The notes under the pieces were generated by a model. It was not told the DNA's origin and searched no databases. It saw only the letters and a program-made list of their open reading frames with translations. Below are positions 9,393 to 55,061 of a stretch of 55,061 nucleotides of DNA, piece by piece. Location of the stretch: positions 1-55,061 of the forward strand of contig JASFEF010000004.1 in assembly GCA_050124975.1 (NCBI GenBank), in the 5' to 3' direction. The translations under genes were made by a program, and so were the position numbers. Source of the stretch: Candidatus Thorarchaeota archaeon (GTDB taxonomy: Archaea; Asgardarchaeota; Thorarchaeia; Thorarchaeales; Thorarchaeaceae). Position 1 is the first letter of the stretch; every line of letters starts with the position of its first letter.

Positions 9393-11054
9393 ATGGCACA
9401 GTTGTCTGGAACACCCGTCCTGATTCTAAAGGAGGGTACTTCAAGAACACGCGGTAGATCCGCACAGTCCAACAACATCATGGCTGGTATTGTTATATCA
9501 GATGCTGTCAAATCCACTCTTGGCCCACGTGGCATGGACAAAATGCTCGTGGACAGTCTGGGAGACGTGACCATCACAAACGATGGCGCTTCAATCCTGA
9601 AAGAGATAGATGTACAGCACCCAGCTGCAAAGATGCTCGTAGAAGTGGCGAAGAGCCAAGACCAGGAGACCGGTGACGGTACAACAACATCCGTCGTCAT
9701 TGCCGGAGAGCTCCTGAAGAGAGCACAGGAGTTGTTGGAAAAGAAGATTCATCCAACAATCATTGTTGGAGGTTATCACAAGGCAGCCGAACAAGCCACC
9801 AAGATACTCAAGGACATTGAAGTATCGATGGAAGGCACAGACAAGAAGATCTTGACTAGTATCGCATCAACATCTATGAACAGCAAGTCTGTTGTTGGTC
9901 AAAAAGACCACTTCGCAAAGATTGCCGTCGATGCAGTTCTTCAGATTGCTGAGGAGAAAGATGGCGGTGTCGAGGCGGACATCGAGATGATTGAGATCAT
10001 CAAGAAACAAGGCAAAGGCCTAACTGAAACCGAGCTGGTCAAGGGCATGGTCATTGACAAGGAAGTAGTTCATGCTTCAATGCCAAGGAAGGTCGAGAAA
10101 GCAAAGATCGCTCTTGTCAACGCTGCTATCGAGGTTGAGAAGACCGAGTTCGACGCTGAGATCAAGATTGATAGTCCTGAGCAAATCAAGGCATTCCTCG
10201 ATGAGGAAGAACGCATGCTCACACGTATGGTCGACAAGATTGTCGCAACCGGTGCAAACGTTCTCGTCTGTCAGAAGGGCATTGACGATGTCGCACAGCA
10301 CTATCTGGCAAAAGCTGGAGTCCTAGCAATCCGCAGGGCAAAGAAGAGCACACTTGAGAAGCTCGCTAAAGCCACAGGGGCAAAGATTGCCACAAGCCTT
10401 GACGAGTTGAATGGCGACTACCTTGGCTCTGCTGGAATTGTCGAAGAGGTCAAGATTGCTGATGACAAGCTTGTCTACGTCAAGGACTGCAAGGATCCGA
10501 AAGCTGTATCAATCGTTATTCGCGGTGGTACTGAGCACGTTGTTGATGAGGCCGATAGGGCACTTCACGATGCGCTCTGCGTTGTAAGAAACGTTGTAGA
10601 GGATTCAACATACGTTGCTGGCGGTGGATCAATAGAGGCTGAGATTTCCAGGAGACTGGAAGCATACGCCAATAAAGTTGGAGGTCGTGAGCAACTAGCA
10701 ATCGAGGCATTCGCAGAATCTCTACTAATTGTACCAAAGACTCTCGCTGAGAACGGAGGTCATGATCCCATAGATATCATTGCTGACCTGAATAAGGACC
10801 ACTCTAAAACCACAGGTATTTGGTTCGGGGTTGACGTGATGAAGGGCAAGACCACTGACATGATGAAGGCGGGCGTCATTGAACCAGCTAGAGTAAAGAG
10901 CCAAGCAATCCGCGCTGCTGCTGAAGCAGCTCAGATGATCCTCAGGATCGATGATGTCATTGCCGCTAAAGCTACTGCTGGTCCACCTCCGGGTGCAGGC
11001 GGTGGAATGGGTGGCATGCCCGGTGGAATGGGCGGAATGCCTGGAATGATGTAA
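9393..11054 (+). CDS. ths: Thermosome subunit (group II chaperonin)
   Basis: STLGPRGMDKMLV, TNDGASIL, GDGTTT, ILRIDD, C-terminal GGM repeats. Confidence 0.97.
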   Translation: MAQLSGTPVLILKEGTSRTRGRSAQSNNIMAGIVISDAVKSTLGPRGMDKMLVDSLGDVTITNDGASILKEIDVQHPAAKMLVEVAKSQDQETGDGTTTSVVIAGELLKRAQELLEKKIHPTIIVGGYHKAAEQATKILKDIEVSMEGTDKKILTSIASTSMNSKSVVGQKDHFAKIAVDAVLQIAEEKDGGVEADIEMIEIIKKQGKGLTETELVKGMVIDKEVVHASMPRKVEKAKIALVNAAIEVEKTEFDAEIKIDSPEQIKAFLDEEERMLTRMVDKIVATGANVLVCQKGIDDVAQHYLAKAGVLAIRRAKKSTLEKLAKATGAKIATSLDELNGDYLGSAGIVEEVKIADDKLVYVKDCKDPKAVSIVIRGGTEHVVDEADRALHDALCVVRNVVEDSTYVAGGGSIEAEISRRLEAYANKVGGREQLAIEAFAESLLIVPKTLAENGGHDPIDIIADLNKDHSKTTGIWFGVDVMKGKTTDMMKAGVIEPARVKSQAIRAAAEAAQMILRIDDVIAAKATAGPPPGAGGGMGGMPGGMGGMPGMM

Positions 11055-45696: not shown

Positions 45697-45713
45697 AGTC
45701 ACATATTGTGACT
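45697..45713. promoter_or_regulatory. Palindromic TF-binding site candidate AGTCACA-TAT-TGTGACT
   Basis: Perfect 7-3-7 inverted repeat plus an extra GTCACA half-site at 45685-45690, between divergent promoters. Confidence 0.55.
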
Positions 45714-45790
45714 ATGTAAGATTGAGGCGCCCTTTGTCAGGATGAGAAACCGAAACCCTCAGACTTTAAACAACTCAGGAGGTTGGGAGG

Positions 45791-46309
45791 ATGTTGTGCA
45801 GAATGAACGAGTATGCCATCCTAATGAAGCTCCTAACAAGGTCAGGAGACCCCATAGGTGCAGGTGTAGATGACATGCTTGATGCACTCGGTCTTCCCGA
45901 GGATATAGGAAGGGAAATCCTATTCAGACGGTTGGGGGAGTTACACTCCAGACTTGAACCTGTAGGACTGACAATCAAACACAATCCGGTAAGCAGTGTA
46001 TTCTATGTCGACACAATACACCAGTCAAAGATGAAACAAGACTCGATGCTCCCAGATAGGTTGGCTGCTACTCTTCTTATTGTAATCACACTTGCGTACC
46101 AAGAAGGGGGATGGGTTTCCTATGACCGAGTGCGAGAGTTTCGGAAGAAGAGTCTGCGAGGAGTCATGGAGGACTTGAGGGAGCTTCAGAATCAAGGATA
46201 CATTGAGTTAGACCCAGCTGATAAGAGGGTGCGGTTAGGTCTTCGTGTCCCCTTTGAGATTGATTATGAGGCATTCTTTAGAGACCTTGTAGCAGAGAGA
46301 GAACAGTGA
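45791..46309 (+). CDS. KITE-like tandem winged-helix protein (ScpB/Nse1/Nse3-like)
   Basis: 172 aa with two wH-like halves: L..L.S.L...GL.I......FY, then L..LAATLLIVITLAY...VS, and L..L.NQGYI......RLG.R. Near smc and the kleisin. Start may be ATG 45803. Confidence 0.6.
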   Translation: MLCRMNEYAILMKLLTRSGDPIGAGVDDMLDALGLPEDIGREILFRRLGELHSRLEPVGLTIKHNPVSSVFYVDTIHQSKMKQDSMLPDRLAATLLIVITLAYQEGGWVSYDRVREFRKKSLRGVMEDLRELQNQGYIELDPADKRVRLGLRVPFEIDYEAFFRDLVAEREQ

Positions 46310-46358
46310 CTTCGTTAGTTTTATCAAGGCAACGTCTGAGGACAACTCGGTCTGAATC

Positions 46359-46718
46359 ATGTCACACAGACGTTCACTAAGATTCTCAAAAACGACCTGC
46401 CCGATCTGCGGTAGCAAGGAAGTTGCCCGTGATGATCACAAGGGAGACCTCCTCTGCACAAACTGCGGTCACATCATAGTCCGTACTGAAACAAGATCAG
46501 TTGGGAAATTCGATGTCGCTCAACATCTCAAGAGAAACGGAAAGATGAATTTCTCAGGTCTACAACAGGTGACGGCTGCCTCCGACGACAAACTGTTCGG
46601 TGTAATTCAGAACATGCTCAATATGGGCTTGATCACAGACATTGGTGGGCAGTACTCACTCACCAAGAAAGGACAGAGATGGTACCGTCAGAGGTTAGGG
46701 CAGGAATGGGGATACTAG
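46359..46718 (+). CDS. TFIIB-type Zn-ribbon plus winged-helix protein
   Basis: CPICGS....D...GDLLCTNCG; C-terminal wHTH ending MGLI....QYSLTKKG. Confidence 0.75.
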   Translation: MSHRRSLRFSKTTCPICGSKEVARDDHKGDLLCTNCGHIIVRTETRSVGKFDVAQHLKRNGKMNFSGLQQVTAASDDKLFGVIQNMLNMGLITDIGGQYSLTKKGQRWYRQRLGQEWGY

Positions 46719-46738
46719 CCCCTTGCGGGGCATACCCC
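46708..46738 (+). terminator. GC-rich hairpin overlapping the Zn-ribbon gene stop
   Basis: GCCCC-TTGC-GGGGC (46718-46731) with an outer GGGG/CCCC extension. Confidence 0.45.
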
Positions 46739-46818
46739 TCACATTAGTGGACACTATTTTCTGGGAAATAGCAAATCAAGGCGCCTTCAATTTTGTGCAA
46801 TATTCCGGCAAAAATAAG

Positions 46819-46826
46819 TTTATTAA
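46819..46826 (+). promoter_or_regulatory. TATA box (TTTATTAA) with purine-rich BRE for the candidate ncRNA
   Basis: AAAAATAAG-TTTATTAA; the TATA begins 30 nt before the 5' G of the terminal stem. Confidence 0.55.
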
Positions 46827-46848
46827 CCGACACCAAGCGGTCAACTCA

Positions 46849-46952
46849 GGATTCGATTCGTCGATTTCTACAAATCTTCAATCTCCCTCCTACCACGCGA
46901 TAAACGTGCTGGCTCAAAAGGCTAGCGCGAACACACACACCGAATCGGATCC
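46849..46952 (+). ncRNA. Candidate ~104 nt structured small RNA of unknown family
   Basis: 12-bp terminal stem GGATTCGATTCG/CGAATCGGATCC, internal hairpin 46905-46929 with G-U pairs, upstream TATA, downstream pyrimidine/T tract. Confidence 0.6.
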
Positions 46953-47009
46953 CATCTTCTCCTTTTTCACTCTTCAAGAATCTGAATAGATGACTTTGCG
47001 AAGCTTCTT

Positions 47010-47834
47010 CTAATTAGCCAATCCCTTGAATGCTTTTGCGACCATCTCTCTCTGGGATTCCATGTCCCCGACGATGTTTATACGGTCTATGTTGATTTCA
47101 CCAAGACCTCTCTTTCTAGCCTCTTGTAGGACGGGCATTTTTGTAGGTTCAAAACCCACTAGATAGCCTCCAACAGCCTCGACTGCAAAAGCATCCCTTC
47201 CCACAATGAGAAGATTTGGTTGGACCGTGACTCTCTTCTTACCAAAACCTAGGTAGCAGTTGGTCGCATCCAACACTGCTAGGTCAATTCCACCGATGGC
47301 CTCATAGATGTCCAAGAGAACAGTGGTCAGTTGTTTGTGGAATCTGTGCTTCTTCACATCAGGAATCATACCAAGTAGATTCTTGATGACAAACCCGAGG
47401 TTCATGAGGTCTTCGAGACCAGCGTCCTCGTACCTTCTAGGGACATGTGTACTGATGAAGGTGTTTGGTTGTGAGAAGACCTTAGGAAGTGGAACAATCT
47501 CACCAGCAATCTCTACATCTATTGTATCCTTGTCATCCGAGAGATTGAATGGGACTACTCTATCATTGTAGCAGTCATTCCATATCTCTAATCGTTTTAG
47601 TCCTGGCCCAGCTCCACTATCAGACTCTGTTACTCGGATCTCTGGTGTCCTATCGAAAGAATCGATGACTGATTGCAGAGTCTTCACTGTGGTGCATATC
47701 CCTGTTTCAGGATTATAGATTCCAACCTTGATGATAGTCTTCTTCTCGGAGGTGTTAAGGTCATCCATGCCCTCAATGTGATCAAGTGCATGGAAGAAGG
47801 AATTGCTGTCAACCACGACGACAGTTGGTTTCAT
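47010..47834 (-). CDS. DUF362 family protein
   Basis: VTESDS, FVIKNLLG.IP..K...H, DLAVLDA, VGRDAFAVEAV, A..RGLG. Likely start ATG 47834 (MKPTV). Confidence 0.75.
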   Translation of the reverse strand: MKPTVVVVDSNSFFHALDHIEGMDDLNTSEKKTIIKVGIYNPETGICTTVKTLQSVIDSFDRTPEIRVTESDSGAGPGLKRLEIWNDCYNDRVVPFNLSDDKDTIDVEIAGEIVPLPKVFSQPNTFISTHVPRRYEDAGLEDLMNLGFVIKNLLGMIPDVKKHRFHKQLTTVLLDIYEAIGGIDLAVLDATNCYLGFGKKRVTVQPNLLIVGRDAFAVEAVGGYLVGFEPTKMPVLQEARKRGLGEINIDRINIVGDMESQREMVAKAFKGLAN

Positions 47835-48061
47835 AGAAATCACCTGGGTGGCAATCAAGGGTATGCCTTTATTAAACAATACAGGATTCAGCAATAGACA
47901 CGTTTTCGAAATTCGCTAATCTGTCCTTTTTTTCGTTAATTTACATGCTACATAGTCTCAAAAATACTCAGATTTCTATTAAAATATGTAACTCCGTATT
48001 TGAGATTCATCTCCATATACGGGTTATGATGATTATCGCTAATCTACTCGACGTGATTGAA

Positions 48062-51000
48062 ATGATGAAAAAACGACCTGCGAGCAGCTATAGACCTTCT
48101 GTTAAACCATTCAGCAAGAATCAGAGAGAGTTGCTCAAAATAGGACTGCCGCTTGCTGTGGTGATTCTGCTATTCATGCCTATGTGTGTGATGGATAACA
48201 CCACTCAACCGTCTACTTATTCAAACATTGTAGTAGATGAGCGATATGAACTTGGGTCAAACCTGATAGGAATCAACTTGCCCTACTATGTCAACTCTGT
48301 GGCGGCAGGGAACACGACTCATGGTCGAGGAGTCGTTTGGATTTACAATGATACACTCCGCTTCAGAGACCCAGTAAATGTGATTGATGCTTCAGTGAAT
48401 ATTGGATTTGGAGACCCATTCCACCAAACACTCATTGGAGCAGATGTGGATTTAGATGGACACACTGAGTTTCTGTTCATGATGTATAATTTCACGAACA
48501 CGAACCTCATGGTAGTTGATTTTGACGGAGGAGGCTCAGCAACAGAGTATAACTATGATCCAATTCCAGACCCAACGGAAATTATCGTTGGTGATTTCAA
48601 TGGGGACAGCTTGATTGATGTGGGTGTCTACAGCCGCATTCGATTGATAACTAAAGATCTAGCTAGTGACACAATGATTGGTGTCTTCCCTCAGATACCA
48701 TTTACTACAGAAGAGATTGTAAGAGCTTGTACAGGAAACTTCTCGATTGTCGTTGGTGATGAGATTGCCGTCATGTATGTCCAAGACCCATGGACATCAA
48801 GTAGCAAGGTTACCGTTGACACCATATTCGGAGATGGTATGTCTATCAATCCATCTCCTATTGAGTCTGCATCTCATGTTCATGGATGGGATATGGTGTC
48901 ATTCGAGTACGGAAGTGACTTTGACAACCTAGCAGTAACAATGGTAGATATGGATCTTGGAGAGAACATTCTGATTGCTATAAACGCCAATCTTACCCCA
49001 AGGTTTGAGTTAAGGGATGCGAAGTATCTAGGAGATTCATACGTGAAGACGGGGAAATTCGACATGGACGGTCAGGAGGACCTTGTTGTTGTCCCCGGTC
49101 AGAGATCCGACGTGATCTTTGTCAACGGAGAAGATGGAAGAATGATGAGAATCTCACAAGAAGAATGTGTGAGTATGTCTCCTCGTGGTTTTGCTACAGA
49201 TTATCTTGACTCGGACAGCCACATGGATGTTATACTAGAGGGTCCAACAGGCCAATTTTCCTTGGTCAGAGGTAGCAGTGGTGAAATAGGCTACGAAGAC
49301 CCGCGACTTCCTGGACCTTTTGAACAGGTCCTCTCATATGACATCAATAACGACGGTAGAAGTGACGCAATCATGCATTATGGACAAATCAAGGTCTTAC
49401 TCAGTGATACAGAACCACCTGATGTGACTCTTGATCCTATCTACCCAATTCATCCAACCATCTACGATCCCTATCTCAAGGTGGAACTAACTGCTACAGA
49501 TGAGATGTATGTCAAAGATGCGAGGGTCTTTATCCGCCCTGCAGACTTCGCAGTAGGTGGCTATCAACAGAATGAAATGACTGAAGCACAAGGTGGCAAG
49601 TTCATCTTCTTTGAAACGGACTTGCAGGCTGGAAACTACGAATATTACGTTGAAGTTGTGGACCCATATCTGAATACTTACTCGTATGGCAATTTCACCA
49701 ACCCTCACATTCTGAAAGTGGAAGGGCACCTTGCATCAGGTGTTCACTATAATGTCACGTTCGACGAAGCCCAAAAACATGTCTTGACTCTCGGCAATGA
49801 TTCTCTTGGAGATAGTCGAATATACAACGTTGTTTCTGATTCGATAGCTAAAACCACAAGCTTGAGAGTCTTCAGCTCAGACTTCACAAAGCTTGGAGAA
49901 TTCACAATTAATGGTTCTGCAACAGATGAGGTGTTTGAGGTATACACAGGTATGTTTGATGGTGACAATGTCCTGGATCCAATACTCATCAGCAACAACT
50001 ATACTCATGTCAAGATTTGGGCATTTAATGGCGACACATTCACATCGTGGAAAAATGCCACTTACAATCTTCATCCCGCAAGATCAGAACATGGAATGGT
50101 TATTGTAGATGATGATGGGGACAATATTGACGAGCTAGCATATGTTGGTGAGAATAGCACAGGCTATTTCCTGATTAGAGCAGATGATAGTTTTGCCACA
50201 TGGACTGATGTGGCTTTGAAGGAATGGGCGGCAATCGTGGATTATGTGTCAATCAATATGTACGGTTCTGATCCTCAGCTCGCAATATTGAGAGGTGATA
50301 ATGCAGTCTATCTGTACCAGCTCAATAATGTGACTCATTTGAAGACACTGAATTATACATCTCCAGGTTCAACAATCTTTGATGACCCATTCAGAATTCA
50401 GGTATACAAGAATTCTACACATTCAAGCGACCAACTACTAGTGGTCTACCGCAGTTGGCTAGTTGATGTGCCAACAAATTATGTGTGTCTAGTGGACGAA
50501 AACACAGTGAATGTTGGTGATTGGCCTAGCTACATGTTTACAGGTCAGCATATCAGAATCACCTTACCCTATGACGTTGATGATGACGGTGTCGATGAAT
50601 TATCATTTCTCGATGCGGGTGGAAATGCATCACTTTATGAACTATCGACCACAGCAGTTCAATCTTGGACAGTGTTTGTAAGTGATGCTATACCCAGAGG
50701 TGGCATTGTACTGGATTTCGATGGAGATGGTGAGAATGAGTTTGCCATTTCAACATCCGACGACCTTCTAACCGCAATTAGTTTCAGCGGCACGATTGAC
50801 TACACAGCCAATCCAGGTATCGCCTTCAACATGGCACCTATTGGGAATGTGGATGTTGGGGCTGGAGAGGACATTGTAGCATTCCCGATATTCAAGTCAC
50901 GAAACACATTAGCAACAATCCGTAATATTGACCTTCTATACAAGCTTGATGTCACTTTTGAGCTTGAAACAAATCTAACACTTCAAGGAAGCAGCATATG

Positions 51001-54000
51001 GGCAAATACAACAGTCCTGAATGTACATAGTGATCCAGTAAGTGATGCATCAGTGTCTCTTGTTGCCTCATATCGATTCGGAGGAGGTACATCTGTGCAG
51101 ACAATGGGCATGGTCTATGATGATTTATCTGACCTTTATACTACTACTGTTGCTCCAAATTGGCCCATGGGACTGGCGAACTTGTCCCTCTCTGTCAATC
51201 ATGACTATTATGACGGTGTAGGAAGGGAATTCGAGAATGCATTGAGAGTTGAGTCTCCACTAAGCATCTCATTGTTCACGGAGTCTGAGGTATTGCAGGG
51301 AAGTGACTTTGACATCAACATCACTATTACAGACAGCTTAGGTGCGAAAGTCACAGATGCAGAGGTCAATGTGACACTTGATGGTGTGGATTATCCTGTA
51401 TCCTATGTAGGAGGGTCATACTACACCTCTGTCACAGGAATCGATCTTGCGCCTGGAAGCTTCACAGTATATGCTTCAGCTGATCATGAGTATGCCACTA
51501 GTGGGGCCAGTCATTCGAAGTCTGTTTCAGTAGTGGTTGACACTCTGATTATCCTAAGAAGCTCTCCATCTCAGGCAGTGCAAGACCAATTCTTCACAAC
51601 ATGGCTAAACATAACCGATCCCTTCGGAAACCCACTTGACGGTGCGACTGTATCGGTGGACTTTGGGGTTACAGAATTCATACTAGTGGAAATCGAACCT
51701 GGAAGATACCTACTAGATAGTTTGGCATCAATGCCAGTTGGTAACTACACAGCAGAGATCATCATCCAACACCCATATGTCGAGAGTATTGAGTTAGATC
51801 CGTACTACATGGCAGTGACCGGAACCCTCGCACCAGCAGTCGGTTATGAGTCCACAGTCGACGGTGGAACGAATTTCACTGTTTCAGTATTTGTGTACGA
51901 CTCGTATGGCGTTACACCAGTAGGAGCTTGGGCTGAAGTTGAGCTTGGTGGAGTCAACTATACTGCCACACACATAGAAGGAGCTGAATTCAGAGTCCAA
52001 TTAAATGCATCATTGAGTATCGGTCAACACAGTTTTGTAGTCTATGTAGGGGCAGACTTCGGAGTACCACGGGCTGATTCACATGACTTGTATGTGTACT
52101 CATGGCCTGATACTTTTGTGGAATCTTCGATGGGATGGATTATTGAACAAGGCAATTGGACGACACTGACTGTCACTGTGAATGATTGGCAGGGGAATCC
52201 AGTTGTTGATGCAACGGTGACTCTTCTGAGTCCTGCTAGTATCTTATTCACACCATATGGCGATGGATCATACTGGGCTGACTTGGACACCCTTGGTTAT
52301 GCACCATACAACTACTCACTGCTTATCTTGATAGAACACACGTATCTGTATCCAGATGATTCCTATCAGATTCTGACTGTCAACGGACAGGCAGTAGTGG
52401 ATGTTTCTGTGCCGGATATGGTGTTCAATCACCAGATGGCGAGGTTCGATTTTGTTGTTGTGGACATTTACGGAAACCCACTGTATGAATACGATTATAG
52501 CTGTGAATATACTGGAACCTTCACTACATCAGGAACACCATACTACTATGAGTTCTCATGGGAGTTCCAGCCTAATCTCTATCCCGGCACATATCCGCTC
52601 AATATAACAATTGACGGACCATTCCTATCTCATAGTGAGTTTATTGTCTGGGTGGATGTCATTGGAAGTCCATCGTCAATCGTACCTTCGCCTCTCAATC
52701 AATCAATATACCTACAAGGCAATGAGATTAACTTTACAATCGTTGTCCAGGACTTGGCAGGCTACTCCATCTCAGGAGCTCAGGTGACTGCAACGATTCA
52801 CGGGAGTACATATACACTTACAGAAGGAGTTGCAGGGGTCTACTCAAGACAGGTCCCGACGGCAGGACTTCCGCTTGGACAGTACAATGTGACTCTCGGA
52901 ATCTTGCATGACTATCTATTGTCACAGTCGCTTTCGCTAGAGCTATTTGTAAAGGGCTATGCCAGTTTCGACCTTTCAATCTCACCAAGCCCTGTGTTAA
53001 ATCAATACAACGTGACTTTCGATTTCACAATTACAGATGCTTATGGAATCCCACTGACCGGATTCAACTACACACTTAGTTTTGCAGGAGTCTATAATAC
53101 GTCAGGAACATCGATGTCCCACAAGATTTCGTGGGAAGTAGACCCTAGTTTCATTCCTGGAAGCTACTGGCTTAACATGACAGTAGAGAGTAATCTAATT
53201 CTAAGATCAACTCACAATGTGACAATAGGCGTGCAGGGAATTGTTGCTGCGCAAATCCTTCAGCCTTCTCCAGGTGAATCGTTCCCGCAAGGAAACAACA
53301 TCAATTTTGTTGTTCGCGTGAGAGACAATGAAACCTCATACATCACTGGTGCGACTGTAGTCCTGTTTCTACATGGAACTACCTACCCACTCATTGAAAC
53401 GAGTGAGGGGATTTATGGAATCAATGTCACCACTGAAAACCTCCCGTTAGGTGAATACAGCGCACAGATAACGGTGTCAGGGGCTTTCATGGAAACTCAG
53501 CAATTAGCAATTGGATTTGACATAAGTGGATATGCTGATGTTAGAATAGATACAGATCCCTCGATCCTACTCAATTATGAGAATGCGACATTTTCAATAT
53601 TCGTCGAAGACCAAAACGGCAACCCAATCAACGAATACAGCTATATACTCGACTTTGGCAGCCAATACAGCGTTTCAGGAAGCTCCGATTACTTCAAGCT
53701 CCAGTGGAAGTTCATTCCAGAACTGGTTCCAGGAGCTTACACTCTCAATGTGACGATTTCAGGTCCTCACATCCCAACCAATTCGACACAGTTTCTGTTT
53801 CAGGTTATGAGCCAGCTGAACGCAACTGTGCTTTCGCCGATTGAGAACTCGACATTTGTGCAAGGTACAGATTCTGTACTCTTCAAGGTCGACCTGTTAG
53901 ATATGCTTGACAATGTCATGGATGGTGGTTCTGTATCTGTCCTCATACATGATTCATTCTTTGTCCTGACAGATCATGGCAATGGAACCTATTCACGAGT

Positions 54001-55061
54001 CGTTTCAACTGCAGGGTGGGCGGCTGGTGTTTACAATTACACTCTGACAATGAATCACCCATATTTAGCACAAGAAGCTACAGTCAGGAGAACGATAGAA
54101 GTACTTGCTGAGTTGGAGTTCCAGGTAGAGTACCTACCAGAAGTACCTCAACAGGGAGAGTTGCTTAACATCACCATTGAGGTGACCGACAAATATGGTA
54201 ATCCTGTGTCAGATCTAAGCATCTCTGTAACGTTCCAGAACCAAACAGTGCAGGCTCTCGAAACAACTCAGAATGGAGAGTACTTCGTGAGCTTTGTTGT
54301 AGCAAGTCAAGGCTATGGAGATGAAAACATTACCATAGCAGCTGAAGGAGTTATGTGCGTACCATTTTCAGCACAGCCATTATCTAAAGTGCCAGTTGTT
54401 GTGGCAGTGCCTCGTCTAGCAATGGATGTTGAAACATTCACTCCGACTTTCCTCATCGCCTTCATCATCAGCTTTGTAGGTCTTGTCATCTACTTCAGAA
54501 TCTCATCTGGAATATCATTCACTAGAGGATCACAAGAACAACTTCTGAGAGGAATACGAAAATTAGATTACTTGTACGGTATTATTGTGGGTCTCGCAGG
54601 TCTTACAATAGTCCATTCATATGTTTCAGCTGGGTCCGGCGATTATGGCATAGCGGTGCTTGAGAGTATCTTGCTATTGGGCATCTCATTAATACTGTAT
54701 GGCATTTGGTTGTACAGAGATGCATCCTCATCGATTCTCCACACACAAAAGATTAGCAGAAGAAGAATGTTCCTTGGACTTTGGCACTTGATATTTGTGC
54801 CAATCGTAATCATACAGATTTTTGATTGGGGGCAGAATATCGAATGGTTGAAGTTCTATGTCTTGGATAACGTCTTTCACCTAGGAGAACTCCGTGTACC
54901 AACAATTATGATGACCATATTTGCGGCATACCTTTCTTCCATCGTGATAGTCGTTGTGAACCTCTATAGAGAGATCAGAAGAGGAATTTCGAGGCTTAAT
55001 GAGATGGCTGTCTTAGGGACACCACCGATAGTCGTCGAACAGGAGTGTGCAGACCTTGTCG
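48062..55061 (+). CDS. Giant (>2330 aa) cell-surface protein: FG-GAP/VCBS propellers, Ig-like repeats, multi-pass TM domain; 3' truncated
   Basis: In-frame translation at start, middle and end (MMKKRP...EQECADLV). The track lists no stop-terminated ORF in this frame. DxDxDG motifs, V.D..G.P...A.V repeats, many N-x-S/T sequons, at least 5 C-terminal TM helices. Confidence 0.88.
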   Translation, partial: MMKKRPASSYRPSVKPFSKNQRELLKIGLPLAVVILLFMPMCVMDNTTQPSTYSNIVVDERYELGSNLIGINLPYYVNSVAAGNTTHGRGVVWIYNDTLRFRDPVNVIDASVNIGFGDPFHQTLIGADVDLDGHTEFLFMMYNFTNTNLMVVDFDGGGSATEYNYDPIPDPTEIIVGDFNGDSLIDVGVYSRIRLITKDLASDTMIGVFPQIPFTTEEIVRACTGNFSIVVGDEIAVMYVQDPWTSSSKVTVDTIFGDGMSINPSPIESASHVHGWDMVSFEYGSDFDNLAVTMVDMDLGENILIAINANLTPRFELRDAKYLGDSYVKTGKFDMDGQEDLVVVPGQRSDVIFVNGEDGRMMRISQEECVSMSPRGFATDYLDSDSHMDVILEGPTGQFSLVRGSSGEIGYEDPRLPGPFEQVLSYDINNDGRSDAIMHYGQIKVLLSDTEPPDVTLDPIYPIHPTIYDPYLKVELTATDEMYVKDARVFIRPADFAVGGYQQNEMTEAQGGKFIFFETDLQAGNYEYYVEVVDPYLNTYSYGNFTNPHILKVEGHLASGVHYNVTFDEAQKHVLTLGNDSLGDSRIYNVVSDSIAKTTSLRVFSSDFTKLGEFTINGSATDEVFEVYTGMFDGDNVLDPILISNNYTHVKIWAFNGDTFTSWKNATYNLHPARSEHGMVIVDDDGDNIDELAYVGENSTGYFLIRADDSFATWTDVALKEWAAIVDYVSINMYGSDPQLAILRGDNAVYLYQLNNVTHLKTLNYTSPGSTIFDDPFRIQVYKNSTHSSDQLLVVYRSWLVDVPTNYVCLVDENTVNVGDWPSYMFTGQHIRITLPYDVDDDGVDELSFLDAGGNASLYELSTTAVQSWTVFVSDAIPRGGIVLDFDGDGENEFAISTSDDLLTAISFSGTIDYTANPGIAFNMAPIGNVDVGAGEDIVAFPIFKSRNTLATIRNIDLLYKLDVTFELETNLTLQGSSIWANTTVLNVHSDPVSDASVSLVASYRFGGGTSVQTMGMVYDDLSDLYTTTVAPNWPMGLANLSLSVNHDYYDGVGREFENALRVESPLSISLFTESEVLQGSDFDINITITDSLGAKVTDAEVNVTLDGVDYPVSYVGGSYYTSVTGIDLAPGSFTVYASADHEYATSGASHSKSVSVVVDTLIILRSSPSQAVQDQFFTTWLNITDPFGNPLDGATVSVDFGVTEFILVEIEPGRYLLDSLASMPVGNYTAEIIIQHPYVESIELDPYYMAVTGTLAPAVGYESTVDGGTNFTVSVFVYDSYGVTPVGAWAEVELGGVNYTATHIEGAEFRVQLNASLSIGQHSFVVYVGADFGVPRADSHDLYVYSWPDTFVESSMGWIIEQGNWTTLTVTVNDWQGNPVVDATVTLLSPASILFTPYGDGSYWADLDTLGYAPYNYSLLILIEHTYLYPDDSYQILTVNGQAVVDVSVPDMVFNHQMARFDFVVVDIYGNPLYEYDYSCEYTGTFTTSGTPYYYEFSWEFQPNLYPGTYPLNITIDGPFLSHSEFIVWVDVIGSPSSIVPSPLNQSIYLQGNEINFTIVVQDLAGYSISGAQVTATIHGSTYTLTEGVAGVYSRQVPTAGLPLGQYNVTLGILHDYLLSQSLSLELFVKGYASFDLSISPSPVLNQYNVTFDFTITDAYGIPLTGFNYTLSFAGVYNTSGTSMSHKISWEVDPSFIPGSYWLNMTVESNLILRSTHNVTIGVQGIVAAQILQPSPGESFPQGNNINFVVRVRDNETSYITGATVVLFLHGTTYPLIETSEGIYGINVTTENLPLGEYSAQITVSGAFMETQQLAIGFDISGYADVRIDTDPSILLNYENATFSIFVEDQNGNPINEYSYILDFGSQYSVSGSSDYFKLQWKFIPELVPGAYTLNVTISGPHIPTNSTQFLFQVMSQLNATVLSPIENSTFVQGTDSVLFKVDLLDMLDNVMDGGSVSVLIHDSFFVLTDHGNGTYSRVVSTAGWAAGVYNYTLTMNHPYLAQEATVRRTIEVLAELEFQVEYLPEVPQQGELLNITIEVTDKYGNPVSDLSISVTFQNQTVQALETTQNGEYFVSFVVASQGYGDENITIAAEGVMCVPFSAQPLSKVPVVVAVPRLAMDVETFTPTFLIAFIISFVGLVIYFRISSGISFTRGSQEQLLRGIRKLDYLYGIIVGLAGLTIVHSYVSAGSGDYGIAVLESILLLGISLILYGIWLYRDASSSILHTQKISRRRMFLGLWHLIFVPIVIIQIFDWGQNIEWLKFYVLDNVFHLGELRVPTIMMTIFAAYLSSIVIVVVNLYREIRRGISRLNEMAVLGTPPIVVEQECADLV

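Follow-up and report, generated by a model that had tools for sequence, protein, structure and literature searches.

What does the intergenic stretch between a TFIIB-Zn-ribbon gene and a convergent DUF362 gene encode in a Candidatus Thorarchaeota genome? The locus lies on contig JASFEF010000004.1 of assembly GCA_050124975.1, of which the whole 55,061-nt stretch analyzed is here called the window. A first-pass annotation, made from the sequence letters alone, had proposed a self-contained small RNA gene at 46819-46967, regulatory or scaffolding in function, with an exposed loop resembling an anti-Shine–Dalgarno (anti-SD) sequence. Comparative analysis shows that this element, denoted type A below, is a real, lineage-specific small RNA gene with structural support. 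As to its role, we judge it slightly on the probable side that the gene is independently transcribed from the plus strand and yields a trans-acting antisense small RNA (sRNA), which would pair with the 5' leaders of surface-protein mRNAs and repress their translation.

Fold, conservation and promoter of the RNA gene

The TATA box, the 12-bp terminal helix (P1), the inner 10-bp hairpin (P3), the (AC)5 run, the tail and the G-poor loop of the first description are all found in place (Table 1). P1 is an uninterrupted helix of 12 base pairs (bp), including one U-G, formed by GGAUUCGAUUCG and CGAAUCGGAUCC; the G-poor unpaired strand includes CUCCCUCC, and the 26-mer CUUCAAUCUCCCUCCUACCACGCGAU around it is unpaired in both the minimum free energy (MFE) and the centroid folds. 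For positions 46849-46964, the plus strand has an MFE of -33.6 kcal/mol vs. -17.6 ± 2.8 in 200 shuffles (z -5.64, no shuffle as good), whereas the minus strand does not stand out from its shuffles (z -1.09; 26 of 200 equal or better).

Covariation analysis of 20 homologues aligned to R1, the covariance model of type A, shows pairing in 94.7% of cells and changes on both sides in 14 of 27 pairs; none of 500 shuffles is as good, and slid partners pair in at most 51% of cells. The alignment was fitted to R1, which biases it in favor of the structure; MAFFT/RNAalifold, independent of the model alignment, recovers P1 and P2. Pairing is seen in 99.2% of cells in P1 (4/12 pairs compensatory), 89.5% in P2 (2/5) and 91.3% in P3 (8/10), the last varying in both length and sequence among homologues. 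One-sided changes in P1 all lead to G-U pairs and are tolerable on the plus strand only, because on the other strand each G-U would be a broken A-C. The assignment to the plus strand is thus supported by both the fold and the direction of the P1 changes.

Homologues were sought with R1 in a genus set of 28 genomes and in 59 genomes from 16 other genera of the same order. Type A is reported in 21/28 genomes of the genus, with scores of at least 73 bits in 20 of these, and in 0/59 of the others at E ≤ 1e-4. Similarly, blastn with the 149 bases of 46819-46967 yields matches in 16/24 same-genus genomes (E < 1e-6) and nothing better than E = 0.01 in 16 genomes of other families. The blastn conservation starts at query positions 27–31, that is, 46845-46849, at the first G of P1. 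Upstream of it, the TATA box TTTATTAA is centered ~26 nt 5' of G46849 and ends 22 nt before this first G of the RNA; its equivalents AAATAAGTTTATTAA, AAATATTTAATAAA or AAATAGATTTATTAG occur at the same distance in 17/17 aligned homologues, while the 20 nt between the promoter box and P1 are not conserved in these 17 sequences. Over 17 homologues, the 26-mer is invariant or at least 90% conserved, and the 5' strand of P1 is invariant or nearly so. The A(AC)5 linker is swapped for CUUGGAUUG, CCUUUGAUUU and similar sequences in a second subgroup of homologues, hence its sequence is not conserved. At the position of the tail, type A homologues have YAUCUUCUUCUU, and the related RNAs of types B and C (see below) have a tail of the same kind. 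The RNA is probably about 105–118 nt long (~110 nt), judging from the sequence, with the 3' end placed in this pyrimidine tail.

In the 3.08-Mb source assembly (G000, 87.9% complete), type A is present in a single copy. The source genome and its relative G002 have a common gene order: an unknown 170-aa gene, the TFIIB-Zn-ribbon gene with a winged helix-turn-helix (wHTH) domain, the RNA, and the convergent DUF362 gene. The next gene on the 3' side (47010-47894) is on the opposite strand, and so the locus does not have the arrangement of a riboswitch or a 5' cis-leader. The agreement of homologues, covariation, fixed-distance promoter and single-copy synteny supports a separate gene. The position between the ends of two genes, and the fact that types A and B flank DUF362 in seven relatives, could also suggest a cis element, i.e., a 3' untranslated region or terminator of the upstream TFIIB-like gene or of DUF362. 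This explanation is very unlikely: the conserved B recognition element (BRE) and TATA box lie 22 nt upstream and conservation begins exactly at P1, types A and B are ~210 nt apart in G001 and G018, and the minus strand is without a fold; more weakly, the metatranscriptome contig of the upstream gene ends at 46658.

Searches for known RNA classes support the initial statement that the element is neither a tRNA nor a C/D RNA. ARAGORN and the Rfam tRNA model find no tRNA in the window; the C/D boxes (RUGAUGA, CUGA) are both absent from 46849-46967, and the sole match of a C/D model is noise (13.5 bits vs. a gathering score of 85). The Rfam scan, which had been suggested as a check, shows no Rfam 15 family at the gathering score in the window and, in a permissive run over 46600-47100, noise only (E > 2). 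The defining motifs of K-turn, H/ACA, hammerhead and permuted or split tRNA were not found by eye. Coding potential was also rejected: the motif frame of type A is without a start codon, and the ATG frames in the loop of type C differ among subtypes through 1-nt indels.

Complementarity to the leaders of a surface-protein family

The 26-mer was folded against positions -35..+18 of all 3788 open reading frames (ORFs) of at least 100 aa in the source genome (mean -10.6 kcal/mol, standard deviation 4.2). The best start region is that of the gene at C23:19562 (-33.3 kcal/mol), followed by C77:6648 (-30.9 kcal/mol); the two genes are paralogues, and another paralogue of theirs is at rank 20. With 35 shuffled motifs, no start region attains -33.3 kcal/mol. 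In the top leader, 23 of the 26 invariant bases pair with 23 nt of the mRNA, in blocks of 9, 7, 4 and 3 bp that extend over the hairpin loop, the SD and the spacer. The first block is CCACGCGAU with GUCGCGUGG; it is followed by CCCUCCU with AGGAGGG, AUCU with AGAU, and UUC with GAA. On the mRNA side, a small hairpin in the leader (CUUUGUC/GACAAAG) has GCGUG as its loop, and the SD GGAGGG is 7 nt before AUG. The duplex persists when the full molecules are cofolded, and for either target the net gain is -17.4 kcal/mol. The anti-SD-like loop of the first-pass annotation is therefore to be redrawn rather than dropped: it does complement SD-bearing 5' leaders, those of one gene family, while the functional strand would be the whole 26-mer and not just CUCCCUCC.

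We infer that the gene is transcribed, that its product forms this duplex in vivo, and that the effect is repression. P1 and the two small hairpins would hold the invariant 26-nt C-rich strand open, and the open strand would pair with short 5' leaders in the mRNAs that encode secreted, C-terminally anchored beta-sandwich proteins with a concanavalin A (ConA)-like fold. In such a duplex, CCACGCGAU would contact the loop and flanks of the leader hairpin GUCGCGUGG, and CCCUCCU, AUCU and UUC would contact the SD GGAGGG and the spacer as far as the start codon, so that the ribosome-binding site (RBS) would be masked and initiation blocked.

The target proteins, ~260 aa long, start with a signal peptide; a beta-sandwich follows, and the C-terminus is a membrane helix ending RR(R). 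They belong to no Pfam family. Their AlphaFold model is of moderate quality (pLDDT 63) and resembles the calreticulin lectin domain and GH16 glucanases (template-modeling score ~0.5); as modeled, the fold is ConA-like. The family is fast-evolving, tandemly arrayed and paralogous, with homologues in 21/28 genomes of the genus, and many of its genes share the leader (G/A)UUCUUUGU(U)CGCGUGG(A)CAAAGGAKGGGAG.

The complementarity recurs in related genomes. Among 30 loci with target homologues, every 50-nt window that pairs with the 26-mer at -26 kcal/mol or better falls on the leader or start of a target-family gene. These are 16 distinct sites in ten genomes, eight of which also have type A (two sites each in G000 and G015; three each in G019 and G022; one each in G002, G004, G009, G011, G014 and G020). 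The site in G009 is built differently, from 12 contiguous nt AUCGCGUGGUAG and AGAUUG over a UUG start; it provides independent support, as it is the complementarity that recurs and not one particular leader sequence. The strict bipartite pattern TCGCGTGGN{1,3}AAGGANGG gives ten sites in 7/28 genomes of the genus and no control hits. The leader-hairpin 13-mer CTTTGTN{0,1}CGCGTGG, essentially confined to the genus, gives 12 hits, nine of them true sites in six genomes; the other three (G007, G003, G201) are without SD or start context and, given seven control hits, were treated as chance. In five genomes with both types A and B (G001, G013, G018, G009, G017), a looser pattern, CGCGTGGN{0,8}AGGAKGG, finds only the antisense strands of the RNA genes themselves.

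The fit depends on the leader and on the RNA type. Leaders with GUCGCGUGG are better fitted by type A, by 2–7 kcal/mol; leaders with UUCGCGUGG are slightly better fitted by the sibling type B (CCACGCGAA); the type C motif is much worse on these leaders (-19 to -23 kcal/mol). When type C motifs were run against start regions, no gene family stood out, the top matches being the antisense strands of other family members. The neighboring genes were also rejected as targets: start regions of DUF362, of a giant ORF and of the TFIIB-like gene give only -5.8 to -10.1 kcal/mol. A 172-aa gene two genes upstream reaches -21.6 kcal/mol with the whole loop but ranks 256/3788 with the 26-mer. This gene has a doubled SD-like leader, CAGGAGGUUGGGAGGAUG, with two GGAGG copies (window positions 45765-45793).

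A more general role, in which the CCUCC loop pairs with any GGAGG-type SD as an anti-SD competitor and damps translation globally, seems unlikely to us. The loop has CCCUCCU, the same core as the anti-SD; several plain-GGAGG start regions score -23 to -27 kcal/mol, and several sibling genes per genome show the same motif. However, an SD match of 5–7 nt cannot account for a strand of 26 nt being invariant throughout, CCACGCGAU and CUUCAAUCU included. Extended complements are not enriched at starts (GGTAGGAGG is found at 0/569 start-like sites and 16 times genome-wide), and the best sites belong to one paralogous family, not to SD-led genes generally.

Table 1. Coordinates of the type A RNA gene and its parts (in the window), of its relatives, and of the predicted target family (contigs denoted by C, genomes by G).
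Feature	Position	Strand	Sequence and remarks
Promoter	46810..46826	+	A-rich BRE-like AAAAATAAG, then TATA box TTTATTAA at 46819-46826
P1, 5' strand, and probable transcription start	46849..46860	+	GGAUUCGAUUCG; onset of blastn conservation; covariation
P2, small hairpin	46863..46876	+	GAUUU-CUAC-AAAUC; in MFE fold; covariation
Invariant single-stranded 26-mer, proposed antisense (seed) strand	46876..46901	+	CUUCAAUCUCCCUCCUACCACGCGAU; unpaired, conserved
P3, variable hairpin	46905..46929	+	CGUGCUGGCU (46905-46914), CAAAA, GGCUAGCGCG (46920-46929); 10 bp, three G-U
Variable 3' linker	46930..46940	+	A(AC)5, with (AC)5 at 46931-46940
P1, 3' strand	46941..46952	+	CGAAUCGGAUCC; fold and covariation
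Pyrimidine tail, probable termination region	46953..46967	+	CAUCUUCUCCUUUUU; similar tails in homologues
Type B, source genome	C126:608-713	+	Contig separate from that of type A
Type C, source genome	C81:5256-5348	+	Found by motif search
Type D	C32, about 10830-10990	-	Found by motif search; longer variant: extended interrupted terminal helix, extra GGGG-UUU-CCCC hairpin; missed by R2
Target protein family, source genome	C23:19562-20341, C77:5656-7436, C36:2352-2996		Arrays in other genomes, e.g., G019:C200, G022:C230

The wider RNA family and its C-rich core

By sequence comparison, type A is a genus-specific branch, with its sibling type B, of a multi-copy RNA family confined to one order of Thorarchaeota. 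The initial proposal of a novel regulatory or scaffold sRNA thus stands as to the self-contained gene, given homologues, covariation, promoter and synteny, and fails as to its being an isolated novelty. Types A–D have in common an end-to-end helix of 12–15 bp, the core CUCC..CCUCCUA(A)CCACG, and a pyrimidine tail, while the sequence of the helix differs by type. The loci of types B and C match no Rfam model other than as noise, and the larger Asgard RNA family is absent from Rfam 15.

Type B is seen as weaker R1 matches (33–41 bits). Near-identical in eight genomes, it combines the motif CUUCAAACUCCCCUCCUAACCACGCGAAU with an 8-bp hairpin and a terminal helix of 15 bp. In seven relatives it lies ~1.1 kb downstream of type A, beyond DUF362; over the relatives as a whole, the distance is ~0.2–1.5 kb (e.g., G002:C8:69489-69594). 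Its best start-region match in the source genome is GCGUAGGUUAGGAGG at C174:5922(-), before a 209-aa signal-peptide protein (-30.9 kcal/mol).

Type C has a 14-bp covarying helix with compensatory changes in 10/13 pairs, a near-invariant core of ~50 nt, UUUUUCGUUACAUGCCCUCAAUUACGAAACUCCCCCCUCCUACCACGAU, and GCC-ACC at the 3' end. It is found by blastn in 28/28 genomes of the genus, with one to nine matches per genome, often at contig ends. Its covariance model, R2, reports it in 26/26 sampled genomes of the family (14 genera) and in 1/1 genome of the sister family, and in 0/123 genomes of 25 other families of the phylum; the core barely changes across the 14 genera. The single copy in the sister family has a tRNA gene ~240 nt away (G025:C21, 1171-1260, minus strand; Rfam tRNA, 53 bits). 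In the source genome, R2 did not report type A, so the membership of type A in the family rests on the shared motif and architecture. Type A resembles type C in the covarying P1, the core CUCC..CCUCCUACCACG, the pyrimidine tail and the lineage; unlike type C, it is single-copy, occurs in one genus only, is without the G-rich 5' leader and the second motif AUGCCCUCA, and has the extra P3 and the extra invariant CUUCAAUCU and CGCGAU.

A search for the exact 15-mer over 185,579 species gives at least 119 stretches, 30 of which (all 20 archaeal-titled ones and ten bacterial ones) were scored with both models. Among the matches listed, 18 of the 20 archaeal stretches are type C (56–114 bits) and one is type A (103 bits), and the archaeal records are titled Thorarchaeota, Promethearchaeota or Hermodarchaeota, which places the lineage in Thorarchaeia (Asgard). 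The ten bacterial stretches score at most 16 bits with R2 and at most 20.4 bits with R1.

Open reading frames flanking 53 family copies fall into orthologous synteny groups of unrelated genes (radical SAM, PhzF-like, proton pyrophosphatase, methyltransferase), and therefore clustering of these ORFs gave no clue to function. Occupying orthologous positions beside ordinary genes, the copies are stable genes rather than mobile repeats. That type A itself derives from a mobile repeat, similar to a miniature inverted-repeat transposable element, or is a chance hairpin, has almost no probability. Related RNAs are multi-copy, many at contig ends; yet type A occurs once in the source genome at a syntenic site, and its covariation supports a folded RNA. 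The many dispersed copies that the first-pass annotation had named as a sign of such a repeat are not seen: there is one copy, with the same neighbors in relatives. A viral origin was considered as well, and the 12 exact-motif matches in IMG/VR contigs, scoring at most 15.4 bits with R2, were ascribed to chance.

The promoter of type C, AAACTTTAATA, is conserved and lies ~75–80 nt upstream of its P1, which leaves a 5' leader of ~50 nt with a G-rich hairpin (GGAGGG or GUAGGA arm, GGGCA loop) that complements the C-rich motifs of the RNA itself. The leader–core duplex beats shuffled leaders at p < 0.05 in 21/50 copies (mean z -1.53). Judging by these sequences, the C-rich strand of type C probably pairs in cis across the terminal helix, suggesting a pseudoknot or a switch. 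A convergent gene is within 20 nt in 10 of 53 type C copies. Types A and B, whose promoter lies just 22 nt upstream of the helix, accordingly lack the 5' leader, and their C-rich strand has no intramolecular partner.

One could accordingly imagine an RNA–RNA network within the family, where types A and B act as competitors for the G-rich leaders at the 5' ends of type C RNAs, which they would open or close in this way. Complementarity of these leaders to the C-rich motifs, significant in the same 21 copies, would fit this, as would the presence in type A of the same CCCUCCUACC core with no leader. We consider it quite unlikely, as CUUCAAUCU and CGCGAU, invariant in type A, have no counterpart in type C leaders, and as these leaders vary between copies, a preference for pairing in trans being conjectural.

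Several observations weigh against the proposed silencing of surface-protein mRNAs. The margin over shuffles is narrow (-33.3 vs. -32.0 kcal/mol for the best shuffle, with 35 shuffles only). G001 (97% complete), G013, G018 and G017 carry types A and B without a detected target site, and since the motif is invariant there as well, another partner may keep it constant; conversely, G011 (92% complete) and G020 (74%) have target leaders while type A is not detected. SD use in the source genome is modest, with 569 of 6094 GGAGG sites preceding a long ORF. The C-rich core is common to type C, where it seems to pair in cis with the leader of the same RNA, and conservation may thus predate the targets. 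As type C bears the core across the order, the core is older than the genus, and part of its constancy must have some other cause, for example a partner (protein or ribosome) or the cis lock. Finally, contigs of four metatranscriptome runs cover 45792-46658 only (depth 2–3.6) and none lies on the RNA, which is uninformative; contigs of standard libraries seldom retain small structured RNAs. In five RNA runs, 6–11% of the words of 45700-48200 are present.

Among other causes of constancy, a protein stands first. The invariant C-rich strand might be a platform or decoy for a protein (KH-type or other poly(C)-binding, or a factor that recognizes the CCUCC-containing 3' end of 16S rRNA), with leader complementarity being secondary. 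Such a reading, to which we give a low but appreciable probability, would account for a core kept in types A, B, C and D though the other parts differ, for near-constancy of the type C core across 14 genera beyond what a fast-evolving mRNA target would demand, and for the four genomes with the RNA and no detected target. At the same time, no candidate protein gene is linked, the neighbors of the 53 copies being unrelated metabolic genes, and no TROVE/Ro60 gene is found in the source genome. In the source genome a contig end truncates the 16S gene, which is absent or partial in five relatives; a pattern search for the 16S 3' region has no match in the 28 genomes, so that these sequences have no bearing on mimicry.

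Three observations concern the surroundings of the gene. The two upstream genes (45792-46658) are matched at 95–100% identity by metatranscriptome contigs from wetland or sediment, which points to transcription by this organism, or by a close relative, in samples of this sort. A GC-rich perfect hairpin, GCCCCUUGCGGGGC (46718-46732), overlaps the stop codon of the TFIIB-Zn-ribbon gene (46716-46718) and may mark the 3' end of its mRNA; a CRISPR repeat model match here is noise (13.5 bits). A giant ORF of more than 2372 aa (47945-55060, plus strand), with FG-GAP and Big_1 matches, runs past the window edge. In relatives, its position after DUF362 is occupied by type B, so the source genome is rearranged or differently assembled here.

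Relation to known small RNAs and significance

The closest parallels are sRNA41 and sRNA154 (loop 2) of Methanosarcina mazei, archaeal intergenic sRNAs that mask RBSs (PMC5867862). As described there, they resemble type A in being intergenic, with a promoter of their own and an exposed pyrimidine-rich loop directed against RBSs, repression being proposed in each case, type A being known from sequence alone. Two of the features that define this kind of RNA are found for type A in silico: a transcription unit of its own, indicated by the promoter in 17/17 homologues, and an accessible SD-complementary strand, the 26-mer. Type A differs in that it has no sequence or structure homology to these RNAs and comes from another phylum (Asgard); in that the 12-bp helix joining its two ends encloses the internal loop where the antisense strand is placed; in that the antisense is 26 nt long, with a second block on the leader hairpin loop; and in its targets, leaders of surface-protein paralogues vs. 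internal RBSs of polycistronic metabolic mRNAs. Type A is, on the evidence of its sequence, likely a new member of this known class of RBS-masking antisense sRNAs, and the target prediction is new.

Cuckoo RNAs of Alphaproteobacteria (CcsR/RSs0680 group) consist of 2–4 adjacent hairpins with CCUCCUCCC in each hairpin loop (PMC4615179). As described there, they too have several siblings per genome with the same C-rich anti-SD-like motif and stems free to vary; in contrast, type A has one longer, different motif in a multi-branch internal loop closed by the terminal helix. With a different motif in an internal loop closed by the two ends of the RNA, type A does not belong to the cuckoo RNAs so described.

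A resemblance in shape to Y RNAs, noted at the start, proves superficial. Type A and the Y RNAs of Ro60 ribonucleoproteins are both ~100 nt long; in each, the two ends form a terminal helix, the internal loop is rich in pyrimidines and the tail is rich in U. However, the terminal helix of type A is unbulged, as had been observed, and its sequence is not conserved among types A, B and C. The Y RNA models of Rfam give no match, and the search for a Ro60 gene that had been recommended gave no matches of TROVE (PF05731) in the source genome at 87.9% completeness, with positive controls in Deinococcus and Bacteroides.

A literature search gave no account of any small RNA or small RNA family from Asgard archaea, Thorarchaeota included. 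Masking of the RBS is itself already established in other archaea and in bacteria. Asgard archaea are the closest known relatives of eukaryotes.

More broadly, and with rather little confidence, types A–D may form an Asgard-specific riboregulatory system built on one C-rich anti-SD-like module. In type C, as the ancestral multi-copy form, the module would be locked in cis by the G-rich 5' leader through a pseudoknot across P1 and could thus serve as a switch; in the leaderless types A and B it would be permanently open, and recruited through added flanking complementarity to silence an expanding surface-protein family. Originally, the module may have mimicked the 3' end of 16S rRNA, acting on the ribosome or on assembly factors.

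The results provide a concrete testable pair, a structurally supported conserved sRNA and defined surface-protein mRNA leaders predicted to be silenced by it. An orphan RNA family of Thorarchaeota gains its first candidate function, and the relation between the types suggests a route by which an RNA module paired in cis may evolve into a trans-acting regulator.

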